Positions 12,537 through 14,090 of a DNA stretch of 32,000 bases are shown piece after piece. The notes under the pieces were generated by a model. That model did not search any database. It was not told the origin of the DNA and saw only the letters and a program-made list of their open reading frames with translations. This DNA is from an uncultured Planctomycetia bacterium (GTDB taxonomy: Bacteria; Omnitrophota; Gorgyraeia; Duberdicusellales; 4484-171), in contig CAZHYN010000004.1 in NCBI GenBank assembly GCA_964536865.1, positions 30,001-62,000 of the forward strand, written 5' to 3'. Each line of letters begins with the position of its first letter. Within the stretch, counting starts at the first letter, position 1. A program made the position numbers and the translations under genes.

Positions 12537-12619
12537 CATAGGGACTCTGTCCACTTGAGGCTCGGCTCATAGGAAAAAATCACAGAAAATAACTTCGCCT
12601 CGCTGTCACCCTGAAGTAT
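12533..12619 (-). repeat. about 87-nt segment homologous to 13398-13482, in inverted orientation
   Basis: Minus strand reads ATACTTCAGGGTGACAGCGAGGCG...GGACAGAGTCCCTATGAAGG. Shared blocks with the partner are ATACT, GGGTGACAGC, CAGAG and CTATGA. Confidence 0.6.
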
Positions 12620-12707
12620 TATCAAAGAAGATATTGTTAATAATTATTTTTAGAAGGTATTTAAAAAGAATAATGTAGACCCCAATTCTGACTTTAAAAA
12701 CAAAAAG

Positions 12708-12725
12708 TGCCGAGGGCGGGAGTCG
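12708..12725 (-). repeat. second isolated copy of the tRNA-Leu 3' end (positions 56-73)
   Basis: TGCCGAGGGCGGGAGTCG is identical to 12832-12849. On the minus strand it is followed by CTTTTTGTTTTT. Confidence 0.9.
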
Positions 12726-12726
12726 T

Positions 12727-12761
12727 AACAAATTCGCCAAAGGCGATTTCCCTTATTTGTT
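12727..12761. other. bipartite stem-loop module Y abutting a tRNA-Leu 3' fragment
   Basis: Outer stem AACAAAT/ATTTGTT (7 bp). Inner hairpin TCGCC-AAA-GGCGA next to the fragment-proximal strand. 8 unpaired nt (TTTCCCTT). Confidence 0.7.
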
Positions 12762-12831
12762 CCGACAATACTTTCGTTTCAGAGTTAACTTCTAGCTTAA
12801 AAAAGAAGTTAATGAATGTGAGATTAAACCA

Positions 12832-12915
12832 TGCCGAGGGCGGGAGTCGAACCCGCACAGAGTTACCTCTACCGGTTTTTGAGACCGACGCGTCTGCCAA
12901 TTCCGCCACCTCGGC
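12832..12915 (-). tRNA. tRNA-Leu (anticodon CAA), class II with long variable arm, no encoded CCA
   Basis: Minus strand: GCCGAGG TG GCGGAATTGGCAGACGC G TCGGT CTCAAAA ACCGG TAGAGGTAACTCTGT GCGGG TTCGACT CCCGC CCTCGGC A. All stems pair and the anticodon loop is CU-CAA-AA. Confidence 0.93.
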
Positions 12916-12990
12916 ATTTACTTTATATTATTATCCTACTCCTATTAGTCTTGCTCCTTAACAACTTCTCTCTTCTATTAACTACACGGG

Positions 12991-13034: not shown

Positions 13035-13081
13035 CCGCCACCTCGGCATTTACTTTATATTATTATCCTACTCCTATTAGT
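13035..13081 (-). repeat. duplicate of tRNA-Leu positions 1-13 plus 34 nt of its upstream flank
   Basis: 47 nt identical to 12903-12949 (CCGCCACCTCGGCATTTACTTTATATTATTATCCTACTCCTATTAGT on the + strand). Confidence 0.92.
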
Positions 13082-13200: not shown

Positions 13201-13229
13201 ATCTTAGCATTAGCAAAATTCTTTGTCAA
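13201..13229 (-). promoter_or_regulatory. candidate sigma70 promoter facing the tRNA-Leu locus
   Basis: Minus strand: TTGACA (13229-13224), 17 nt, TAAGAT (13206-13201). Confidence 0.45.
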
Positions 13230-13310: not shown

Positions 13311-13350
13311 GGCCGTAGTTTCCGCCAAAGGCGGACCCACTTATGAGGGG
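13311..13350 (+). repeat. degenerate tRNA-Ala 5' fragment (GGCCGTAGTT) followed by a 30-nt twin-hairpin element copy
   Basis: GGCCGTAGTT, then TCCGCCAAAGGCGGA, then CCCACTTATGAGGGG. The second hairpin has lost one base pair relative to the other copies. Confidence 0.75.
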
Positions 13351-13397
13351 CGATCCTTGATGGGCCATTTAAAAATAAATAAATTTCTTCTTTGGTC

Positions 13398-13482
13398 ATA
13401 CTCTAGGGGTGACAGCAAGCCGTGTTTAACTACCTCGGATTTACTTATAGGCTTGCGTCAGAGGGGCAGAGCCCCTATGAGG
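13398..13482 (+). repeat. about 85-nt segment homologous to 12533-12619 (inverted partner)
   Basis: ATACTCTAGGGGTGACAGCAAGCCG...GGCTTGCGTCAGAGGGGCAGAGCCCCTATGAGG. It contains stem GCAAGCC/GGCTTGC and hairpin GGGGC-AGA-GCCCC. Confidence 0.6.
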
Positions 13483-13495
13483 AGCGTAAGCGACA

Positions 13496-13547
13496 GGGCC
13501 GTAGTTTCCGCCAAAGGCGGACCCGCTTATGAGCGGGCAGCAGGGAG
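13496..13547 (+). pseudogene. truncated tRNA-Ala 5' fragment (positions 2-22) with the 31-nt twin-hairpin insert between nt 12 and 13
   Basis: GGGCCGTAGTT[TCCGCCAAAGGCGGACCCGCTTATGAGCGGG]CAGCAGGGAG. Identity to the tRNA stops after G22. Confidence 0.85.
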
Positions 13548-13548
13548 T

Positions 13549-13594
13549 AAGTTGTCTGCAACGTTAAGTTGCAGTATTCTTAAATATACAACTT
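13549..13594. other. bipartite stem-loop module S1 abutting the tRNA-Ala 5' fragment
   Basis: Outer stem AAGTTGT/ACAACTT (7 bp). Inner hairpin CTGCAAC-GTTAA-GTTGCAG next to the fragment-proximal strand. 13 unpaired nt. Confidence 0.7.
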
Positions 13595-13658
13595 CCTCCA
13601 TTGTTTATGATGTTAAAGATAGGCTGTCTCTTTAAAATAGAAGCTAAAGAAAAGTGAT

Positions 13659-13734
13659 GGGGCCGTAGTTCAGCAGGGAGAACGCTACGCTGGCAGCGTA
13701 GAGGTCAGGGGTTCAAATCCCCTCGGCTCCACCA
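13659..13734 (+). tRNA. tRNA-Ala (anticodon GGC), intact, CCA encoded
   Basis: GGGGCCG TA GTTC AGCAGGGA GAAC G CTACG CTGGCAG CGTAG AGGTC AGGGG TTCAAAT CCCCT CGGCTCC A CCA. The G3:U70 alanine identity pair is present. Confidence 0.95.
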
Positions 13735-13819
13735 GTTAGATTGTTAAATTCTCATTTTTAGGTGATATAAATGTTTTTATTAATAGATGGTAATTTTTAA
13801 GGTTTTCCAGTAAAATTGC

Positions 13820-13872
13820 GGGGCCGTAGTTTCCGCCAAAGGCGGACCCGCTTATGAGCGGGCAGCAGGGAG
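13820..13872 (+). pseudogene. second truncated tRNA-Ala 5' fragment (positions 1-22) with the 31-nt insert between nt 12 and 13
   Basis: GGGGCCGTAGTT[31-nt insert 13832-13862]CAGCAGGGAG. It is a copy of 13496-13547 offset by 325 bp. Confidence 0.85.
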
Positions 13873-13873
13873 T

Positions 13874-13919
13874 AAGTTGTCTGCAACGTTAAGTTGCAGT
13901 ATTCTTAAATATACAACTT
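13874..13919. other. bipartite stem-loop module S2 (copy of S1)
   Basis: Identical to 13549-13594, offset by 325 bp. Confidence 0.7.
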
Positions 13920-13983
13920 CCTCCATTGTTTATGATGTTAAAGATAGGCTGTCTCTTTAAAATAGAAGCTAAAGAAAAGAGAT

Positions 13984-14090
13984 GGGGCCGTAGTTCAGCA
14001 GGGAGAACGCTACGCTGGCAGCGTAGAGGTCACGGGTTTCCGCCAGAGGCGGACCCGCCTTTAGGCGGGCAAATCCCGTCGGCTCCACCA
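13984..14090 (+). tRNA. tRNA-Ala (GGC) copy interrupted in the T-loop by a 31-nt insert (intron-bearing gene or recent pseudogene)
   Basis: It matches 13659-13734 at all positions except a compensatory T-stem pair (ACGGG/CCCGT) and the insert at 14039-14069 between T55 and C56. CCA is encoded. Confidence 0.7.
14039..14069 (+). repeat. 31-nt twin GC-hairpin element, T-loop copy
   Basis: TCCGCC-AGA-GGCGGA followed by CCCGCC-TTTA-GGCGGG. Same length and architecture as 13507-13537 and 13832-13862. Confidence 0.85.

Follow-up and report, generated by a model that had tools for sequence, protein, structure and literature searches.

Whether a bacterial tRNA gene that is split in its T loop by a short, hairpin-forming sequence is spliced, works with its insert or has been lost to a mobile element is the question raised by a 32,000-nt stretch of DNA from an uncultured bacterium (the window; contig CAZHYN010000004.1, positions 30,001 to 62,000, assembly GCA_964536865.1). 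The window holds two tRNA-Ala(GGC) genes on its forward strand. Copy 1 is intact, and copy 2, 250 nt downstream, carries 31 nt at 14039-14069 (TCCGCCAGAGGCGGACCCGCCTTTAGGCGGG). This insert consists of two successive hairpins, and the twin-hairpin element is named el here. The original prediction had taken a paired change in the T stem of copy 2 as a sign of selection on folding and had raised the possibility that the insert is removed or tolerated in the RNA. The comparisons reported below point instead, with a probability of about 80%, to a miniature mobile element, non-coding and formed of twin hairpins, that inserted at the DNA level into a spare tRNA copy and is not spliced.

ARAGORN and Rfam (RF00005, 66.9 bits) agreed on copy 1 at 13659-13734 as a canonical 76-nt tRNA-Ala(GGC) with an encoded CCA, as it had been read. 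With its insert in place, copy 2 (13984-14090) received no tRNA call from ARAGORN, intron search included, and no Rfam hit at gathering score. Removal of 14039-14069 led ARAGORN to call a 76-nt tRNA-Ala(GGC), and the expected restoration of the cloverleaf was thus borne out. G50C and C64G are then the sole differences from copy 1, again as described earlier, and the placement of the 31 nt exactly between T55 and C56 held in coordinates, sequence and boundaries. The junctions of the insert, GGGTT^...^CAAATCC (carets mark the borders of el), are unambiguous and cannot be shifted, and no target duplication is seen. They are identical in an ENA assembly (L120; L numbers designate the contigs and loci compared) and in two Logan assemblies (L121, L122; different runs). 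The LeuRS product served to find these assemblies of the same locus, the TTG-start Nfo product giving no exact match. LeuRS homologues also place the host in Candidatus Omnitrophota, which supports its earlier assignment to the Bacteria.

The hairpin motif CCGCCNNNGGCGG occurs four times in the window against 0.06 expected, more than chance would give. Three further el copies upstream had been overlooked by the earlier reader; they lie at 13321-13350 (el0, degenerate), 13507-13537 (el1) and 13832-13862 (el2), with the variant sequence TCCGCCAAAGGCGGACCCGCTTATGAGCGGG. Both el1 and el2 split GTAGTT^CAGCAGGGAG, and the context GTT^CA is common to them and to the T-loop copy, el3. Because el3 differs from el1 and el2 at five positions, it is not a local copy of either.

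Relatives were obtained by a metagenome scan with the anticodon arm of this tRNA, which returned 12. In 11 of these, tRNA-Ala(GGC) adjoins nfo, followed by leuS wherever the contig is long enough. Five contigs (L124, L167, L168, L169 and L172) represent a sister species whose LeuRS is 93% identical to that of the window, and L171 carries a LeuRS that is 77% identical. At the T-loop site, el is present in the window but missing from all five sister-species contigs. At the D-arm site, both the window and the sister species have it, while L171 shows the same 22-nt fragment and spacer unoccupied (GTAGTT^CAGTTGGGAG). In both comparisons the filled and empty sites differ by the element alone, without duplication. 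On these alignments, el is shown to behave as a discrete DNA insertion after TT that leaves no target duplication.

An arrangement in which a filled site is followed by an empty one was tested over all el copies and was seen solely where these lie in tRNA or 5S sequences. An alignment of the LeuRS of L077, which bears el, with that of the window places extra residues in a variable loop and leaves no clean 10-residue gap; this pair was not used as empty-site evidence. Embedding of el in a larger palindrome forming a T-shaped hairpin was rejected as a general feature, the complementarity of the flanks being barely above that of a shuffled control.

The paired difference in the T stem had been claimed as a compensatory double substitution made under selection on folding after the insertion. 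This claim failed on comparison with the relatives. The copy 2 type of stem (ACGGG/CCCGT, C50:G64) is present in uninterrupted genes of L124, L127, L128, L132 and L134, that is, in the sister species and four further relatives. The copy 1 type (AGGGG/CCCCT, G50:C64) is present in L125, L131 and L171, and other relatives have other covarying stems (GAGGG/CCCTC, GAGAG/CTCTC and ATCGG/CCGAT). In the sister species, the same promoter as in the window is followed by a tRNA-Ala 5' fragment with el0 (frag0), a second with el1 (frag1), a spacer, a single intact C50:G64 tRNA-Ala and nfo; neither the 325-bp duplication described below nor the T-loop insert was found in its five contigs. Because the nfo-proximal, uninterrupted gene of the sister species has C50:G64, this is the ancestral allele, copy 2 the ancestral gene with the ancestral stem, and copy 1 the divergent one. 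An ancestral C50:G64 in turn means that the T-stem swap is not a compensatory change made after the insertion. Nor does the pattern represent decay, since two random changes would be expected to form a complementary pair in only ~0.4% of cases (1/75 x 1/3). The difference is explained by standing alleles, not by selection on the interrupted gene.

The break between positions 55 and 56 recurs with more than one element. Downstream of the intact tRNA-Ala of L171 (2480-2590), a 3' fragment starting from position 56 lies behind a different hairpin element (..GGATGCACT...AGTGCATA^CAAATCC), and a sequence related to this element (ATTTGGATGCACTAA) follows tRNA-Ala in L125, L130 and L134. In L133 (Ga0208769_1002258), an otherwise intact tRNA-Ala(GGC) has a 10-nt tandem duplication, GTCGAGAGTT followed directly by GTCGAGAGTT, that ends exactly at the T-loop TT^CA and may be a repair footprint at the same hot spot.

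A wider family scan used the pattern TCCGCCNNNGGCGGACCCGC on a single genome from each of 185,579 species and matched at least 119 loci. Among the matches listed, 86 have the full twin hairpin, and the remainder are high-GC chance matches without hairpin 2. The statements in this and the next two sentences refer to those listed matches. The consensus is YCCGCC-N3-GGCGGR, twice, with a modal length of 30 nt (69/86), nearly invariant stems and variable loops; T is found at -2 in 67/83 copies, T at -1 in 59/83 and A at +2 in 52/83. Almost all hosts are metagenome-assembled genomes (MAGs), from Omnitrophota, many Patescibacteria lineages, Planctomycetota, Elusimicrobia and Verrucomicrobiota/Kiritimatiellae, as well as Chloroflexota, Melainabacteria, some proteobacterial MAGs and others. 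The family, with varied loops, is also present in a single amplified genome (SAG) and in closed MAG chromosomes, and comes from many studies. Among IMG/VR viral contigs, the full element was matched only once, which lends no support to phages as the usual carriers. In the literature searched, an incomplete collection, no description of el was found, only organellar analogues.

Many copies interrupt fragments of RNA genes. Such tRNA fragments were read for Ser (L020, L021), Arg (L043, L049), Thr (L081), Met (L045), Leu (L086), Val (L033, L155, L175), Pro (L103), Lys (L135, L173) and Asn (L145, L156), together with a 5S rRNA fragment (L057). Within tRNA, el enters at position 9^10, in the D, anticodon or T loop or in the variable region. 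For nearly all interrupted sequences that were read, an intact gene of that kind lies no more than ~400 nt away. Exceptions are L070 and L111, where the neighboring intact tRNA differs in sequence from the fragment, and L176/L177, where the neighboring tRNA is itself interrupted. An intact tRNA was found within 150 nt of 11 of 90 el copies, against a background of 2.2% (p = 5e-6). The suggestion to look for the same insert in tRNAs of related MAGs was answered in two parts: el does interrupt tRNA and 5S fragments in other MAGs, but an intact copy is nearly always close by.

Other copies are found in protein genes. As a 30-nt element, el lies in frame in intact genes for UvrA, RecG (four loci), LeuRS, SecA, pyruvate kinase, iPGM and GH57, and also in DnaJ, where it falls between Pfam domains; in all of these open reading frames (ORFs) except DnaJ the Pfam domain alignments continue on both sides of it. 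The encoded peptide is SAxGGPAxGG or, in the opposite orientation, PAxGGSAxGG (Gly/Ala/Ser/Pro), and Arg-rich frames were seen only in doubtful ORFs. The length of 30 nt, the in-frame position and the tolerable Gly/Ala/Ser/Pro frames indicate that el in protein genes is retained in the RNA and translated, not spliced. Intergenic copies were also found, including solo copies with neither tRNA nor GIY-YIG gene nearby. In RecG of three MAGs (L042, L059 and L112), el is found at the same position of the helicase C-terminal domain, after LHGRM, LHGKL or LHGSM, which is either an old inherited insertion or a preferred site.

Empty and filled sites, a family that crosses phyla and in-frame genic copies together support what had been only the fallback reading, a copy inactivated by a miniature mobile element. 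In the proposed course of events, copy 2 would be the ancestral nfo-proximal tRNA-Ala(GGC), still with its C50:G64 stem. A local 325-bp tandem duplication (13496-13713 and 13821-14038, 99% identical, the 218-nt repeats differing at only two positions), in which copy 2 belongs to the second unit, would have left a second, intact gene, copy 1, with the G50:C64 allele. Because copy 1 is redundant with it, copy 2 could be disrupted at no cost when el landed after TT (GTT^CA), without target duplication. More generally, disposable gene fragments, a redundant tRNA copy and tolerant protein loops are the places in which el persists. As a gene, copy 2 is most likely dead or dying and thus inactive, since the insert parts nucleotides 55 and 56 and copy 1 supplies the function. 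These two nucleotides form the G18-psi55 and G19-C56 elbow contacts, which are needed by RNase P, EF-Tu and the ribosome.

A possible source of mobility was indicated by the neighbors of el. When the ORFs of el loci were compared all-against-all, one notable cluster emerged, of 84-103-aa proteins directly beside el in 6 of the 86 loci (among the matches listed). The el-neighbor proteins (80-103 aa) consist of a GIY-YIG catalytic domain only (PF01541, 49-58 bits), without a separate DNA-binding domain, and Y, G, H, E and R are invariant in their alignment. Their nearest solved structures are the UPF0213 proteins 1zg2 and 1ywl, and SLX1 is weakly similar. A profile search gave 2,572 relatives, the best-scoring of which are mostly ~80-90 aa; those with a named source come from Patescibacteria and Omnitrophota MAGs.

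Seven of these relatives were sampled regardless of el (L135, L145, L155, L156, L173, L175 and L176). All seven showed a tRNA 5' fragment, a family hairpin (twin or single), 5-10 nt that continue the tRNA, the ORF and a tRNA. The hairpin stems are TCCGCC, CCCGCC, TCAGCC, CCAGCC or TCTGCC. The ORF begins 9-26 nt after the hairpin, and the tRNA sometimes overlaps the stop codon. An intact tRNA was called next to the ORF in six of the seven; the tRNA of L176/L177 is interrupted in the anticodon region and was not called by ARAGORN. Further downstream, a short stub, another hairpin and the 3' part of a tRNA often follow. Every sampled GIY-YIG ORF is thus flanked by family hairpins, while the ORF is present at a minority of el copies, which is the pattern that an autonomous partner and its non-autonomous derivatives would produce.

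By analogy with RAYT and REPs, the small GIY-YIG nucleases may mobilize el in trans, a tentative proposal to which somewhat less than even odds are given. More doubtful is the full proposal that el and the small GIY-YIG genes form a new two-part mobile system present in many uncultivated bacterial phyla, in which a minimal nuclease of ~80 aa, akin to structure-specific nucleases, would reside in self-complementing tRNA-gene cassettes and el, mobilized in trans, would land after TT in tRNA, 5S rRNA and, in frame, essential protein genes. Such cassettes may persist in tRNA genes by regenerating an intact tRNA, which would keep the host alive, and transcription of the nuclease gene may accompany that of the tRNA. 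The fragment-el-spacer units of the window look like relics of GIY-YIG cassettes without the ORF.

Several side observations concern these cassettes. At L027 (6500-7400) the hairpins are separated and stand singly at two points of a tRNA-Lys T arm (GCGG^hpB...GTTCGAGT^...hpA^CCCGCC), with the GIY-YIG gene and the fragment tandemly duplicated; single 15-nt hairpins may be the basic unit. In L176/L177 (1147-1500), the anticodon region of the tRNA apparently contains a structured insert of ~260 nt that may be a group I intron. Small genes for "23S rRNA intervening sequence protein" (PF05635, four-helix-bundle) adjoin the GIY-YIG/tRNA cassettes of L155 (1930-2295) and L156-L164 (~1056-1301), and represent a second small multicopy gene family in the same niche, at Omnitrophota and Moranbacteria loci.

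A number of points weigh against the insertion of a mobile element as set out here. No GIY-YIG gene or relic was found in the 32-kb window by tblastn, and GIY-YIG nucleases are not known to be transposases. The GIY-YIG link could also reflect a shared preference for disposable tRNA fragments. In ~120 kb of DNA from relatives in this Omnitrophota family, el was confined to the tRNA-Ala locus, in the window and in the sister species, which implies that its recent activity here is limited. Copy 2 still has its CCA, G3:U70 and perfect stems, and its predicted fold keeps the other three arms (acceptor, D and anticodon). Finally, the history of copy 1 fits two scenarios: its G50:C64 may be an allele imported by recombination around the T loop or co-conversion, or copy 1 may be an old paralogue that was lost in the sister species by recombination between repeats.

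Four other explanations were considered. The first is that el has no mobility of its own and is a junction or attachment scar of tRNA-targeting GIY-YIG homing cassettes, which act through double-strand-break repair and carry a replacement tRNA part; copy 2 would then be a displaced host gene and its T-stem difference a co-conversion tract. This accords with the recurrent layouts of loci that have an ORF, either [tRNA fragment]-el-[5-10 nt continuing tRNA]-GIY-YIG ORF-[intact tRNA], or [intact tRNA]-...-[short stub]-el-[3' part of tRNA], or both. In every upstream-type cassette, el precedes the start of the ORF by 9-26 nt. The insert also has position 50 on one side and position 64 on the other, each within 9 nt. 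In addition, the intact gene, in its D loop, and the stub that follows el1 have a lineage-specific dinucleotide in common, CA in the window and TT in the sister species (L124), a covariation that indicates gene conversion between fragment and gene across the el site. Nevertheless, el also stands alone, in frame within protein genes or between genes, where neither a tRNA nor a GIY-YIG gene is near, and L171 has the 22-nt fragment and spacer without el. The proteins, with a catalytic domain only, have no DNA-binding domain for sequence-specific homing, and the intact tRNA beside the ORF retains the target sequence in most loci, so that no immunity is evident. A cassette scar is thus considered unlikely.

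Tolerance of the insert, with copy 2 working as a 107-nt tRNA with an expanded T loop, is very improbable. Copy 2 shows no other decay, and some RNA loops and also protein loops accommodate hairpin expansions, but here the insert separates the very nucleotides that make the elbow contacts, and the gene is no longer recognized by ARAGORN or Rfam. The absence of decay is explained by recency, given the two differences between the 218-nt repeats.

Removal at the RNA level, with el as a short bacterial tRNA intron whose excision and ligation of the halves would give a functional 76-nt C50:G64 tRNA-Ala, is hardly credible. The perfect cloverleaf after deletion, the intact stems, G3:U70 and CCA, and a predicted RNA fold in which the acceptor, D and anticodon arms are kept and the T stem closes around the insert would all suit an intron. 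In the minimum-free-energy fold of copy 2, however, no bulge-helix-bulge (BHB) motif (a 4-bp helix between two 3-nt bulges) was found, the T stem closing a loop with 2 + 5 unpaired nt around the stacked hairpins, and an Rfam scan of the window gave no intron or ribozyme family. The alleged compensatory change is an ancestral allele. The same element is also present in tRNA fragments too truncated for splicing ever to yield a tRNA, an intact copy lies near nearly every interrupted tRNA or 5S gene examined (here copy 1), and in protein genes el is always in frame, with tolerable frames in both orientations, which splicing would make needless. An assembly or sequencing artefact, to which the breaks of short-read assemblies in the repeat region might point (L120, L121 and L122 all begin inside it), is of negligible probability, since three independent assemblies span both el3 junctions with the same sequence and many studies have yielded MAGs, a SAG and closed MAG chromosomes that contain family members with differing loops.

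The mobile twin-hairpin element favored here shares behaviors with several known systems. Rickettsia palindromic elements (RPEs), which Ogata et al. are said to have described in 2000, are likewise short palindromic selfish DNA with many non-autonomous copies, also in RNA genes, and insert in frame into essential protein genes, where they are translated as a tolerated peptide. They differ in length (~100-150 bp), in their unrelated sequence and in their restriction to Rickettsia, whereas el has 30 nt, two tandem hairpins with 6-bp stems and hosts in many phyla. No nuclease is known to be associated with RPEs. REP/REPIN-RAYT systems also comprise non-coding dispersed hairpin repeats of 20-40 nt that flank the gene of a presumed mobilizing nuclease, as el does the GIY-YIG ORF. 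In those systems the repeats stay outside genes and the RAYT transposases are of the IS200/IS605 Y1 family, while el enters genes, flanks GIY-YIG (PF01541) ORFs and forms cassettes in tRNA genes; the resemblance is functional only. Phage T4 SegB is a GIY-YIG gene among or next to tRNA genes whose spread would involve recombination with co-conversion of flanking tRNA, but SegB-type proteins exceed 200 aa and have DNA-binding domains, in contrast to the catalytic domain only of the el neighbors. Hairpin elements and partial tRNA duplications are not known as features of Seg loci. The GC clusters and double-hairpin elements (DHEs) of fungal mitochondria are very short, GC-rich, composed of one or two hairpins and mobile in AT-rich genomes, where they are located in intergenic regions, introns and rRNA genes; they are organellar, with unrelated sequences, and the tRNA-fragment/GIY-YIG cassette layout is not described for them. 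Archaeal BHB introns resemble el as short inserts in tRNA genes outside the anticodon loop, but el lacks a BHB, shows no sign of excision, has a bacterial host and also occurs in fragments and protein genes. In sum, el shares behaviors with RPEs, REP/RAYT and GC clusters/DHEs, yet fails the defining features of each.

Other candidates fit not at all or only in part. A group I or II intron would need a ribozyme core of >200 nt in the anticodon loop, against 31 nt in the T loop here, and no Rfam intron family matched. A miniature inverted-repeat transposable element does not fit, as no junction has a target duplication and the ends, TCCGCC and GGCGGG, each belong to the stem of a different hairpin instead of forming terminal inverted repeats. 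An IS200/IS605-derived PATE would insert 3' of a fixed tetra- or pentanucleotide, without target duplication, and have subterminal hairpins with guide sequences. The lack of a duplication in el and its preference for TT on the left would suit this, but guide sequences have no space, since the hairpins extend to the two termini, and comparison of the ORFs of el loci revealed no TnpA nearby. The boundaries cannot be shifted to fit the GTTC targeting of IS91-type elements or the TT cores of serine recombinases, and CRISPR repeats and terminators are ruled out by the in-frame genic copies.

The surroundings of the two genes are summarized in Table 1.

Table 1. Features around the tRNA-Ala(GGC) genes and the divergent tRNA-Leu(CAA) gene, in window coordinates
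Feature	Position	Strand	Remarks
tRNA-Leu 3' fragment, broken in the T loop	12480..12497	-	abutted by a different hairpin-forming sequence
Second tRNA-Leu 3' fragment (12708-12725), then decayed el-like hairpin on the + strand (TCGCCAAAGGCGA...)	12708..12764	-	
tRNA-Leu(CAA), intact	12831..12916	-	ARAGORN, Rfam
tRNA-Leu 5' fragment (14 nt) with 33 nt of upstream flank	13035..13081	-	exact 47-nt repeat of 12903-12949
Divergent partner promoter, facing tRNA-Leu	13229..13201	-	
Promoter, sigma-70-type (TTGACA-17-TATATT, TG-extended), in palindrome TTGTCAATTGACAA	13230..13258	+	11/12 matches
frag0, oldest tRNA-Ala 5' fragment (GGCCGTAGTT)	13311..13320	+	conserved in sister species
el0, degenerate twin hairpin (TCCGCCAAAGGCGGA CCCACTTATGAGGGG)	13321..13350	+	intact in ortholog L124
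frag1, tRNA-Ala 5' fragment (positions 2-12)	13496..13506	+	
el1, twin hairpin at GTAGTT^CAGCAGGGAG (tRNA T12^C13)	13507..13537	+	el-less version of fragment in L171
10 nt continuing tRNA (CAGCAGGGAG) and 111-nt conserved spacer	13538..13658	+	hairpin 13556-13574
tRNA-Ala(GGC) copy 1	13659..13734	+	intact, G50:C64, encoded CCA; presumed functional gene
85-nt segment between copy 1 and second repeat unit	13735..13819	+	unique to lineage; absent from sister species
frag2, tRNA-Ala 5' fragment (positions 1-12)	13820..13831	+	start of second unit of 325-bp duplication
el2, identical copy of el1	13832..13862	+	
Second copy of 10-nt stub and spacer	13863..13983	+	99% identity
tRNA-Ala(GGC) copy 2, positions 1-55 (C50)	13984..14038	+	
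el3, 31-nt twin hairpin (TCCGCC-AGA-GGCGGA, CCCGCC-TTTA-GGCGGG)	14039..14069	+	inserted at GGGTT^CAAATCC (T55^C56)
tRNA-Ala(GGC) copy 2, positions 56-76 (G64, CCA)	14070..14090	+	nfo-like gene next, as in all relatives

Each upstream el copy is preceded by a tRNA-Ala 5' fragment terminating in ...GGCCGTAGTT, and no continuation of the tRNA sequence was seen 3' of el0. All fragments of tRNA-Ala are situated between the forward promoter and the tRNA-Ala gene. The promoter motif was also found upstream of tRNA-Ala in the relatives L123 and L130-L134 and is identical in the ortholog L124; it probably drives the entire tRNA-Ala leader, including all fragments. L124, L127 and L171 have all conserved the spacer that follows the tRNA stub. 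At 13548-13600 (and 13873-13925) this spacer forms a long hairpin (GGGAGTAAGTTGT ... ACAACTTCCTCC) that is conserved in the same three contigs, with compensating changes in L127 (TCAT/ATGA for TTGT/ACAA) and an inner stem-loop that is replaced in relatives. This hairpin could be a structured leader RNA or a cassette relic.

The divergent neighbor, tRNA-Leu(CAA), has accumulated fragments of itself in the same manner, each abutting a different hairpin-forming sequence, and its second 3' fragment (12708-12725) is also broken in the T loop. The copy number of the tRNA-Leu 5' fragment, and that of a 131/132-nt unit, varies among the sister-species contigs. An inverted repeat of ~60 nt (12596-12657 and 13365-13422, 81-88% complementary) brackets tRNA-Leu, the divergent promoters and frag0/el0, and may derive from a small ORF whose start was duplicated or mark the termini of an older element.

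There is accordingly no evidence for a bacterial T-loop tRNA intron at this locus. What the insert represents is an apparently undescribed family that crosses phyla with nearly invariant stems. Core enzymes of Patescibacteria, Omnitrophota and further phyla gain 10-residue Gly/Ala/Ser/Pro loops from it, and it litters tRNA and 5S loci with gene fragments and breaks short-read assemblies. For annotation, the consequence is that interrupted tRNAs remain uncalled. The family may also account for the abundance of small GIY-YIG proteins in these genomes. If the link to the nuclease is true, it would mean a new mechanism of mobilization and possibly a compact, structure-specific nuclease of practical use.

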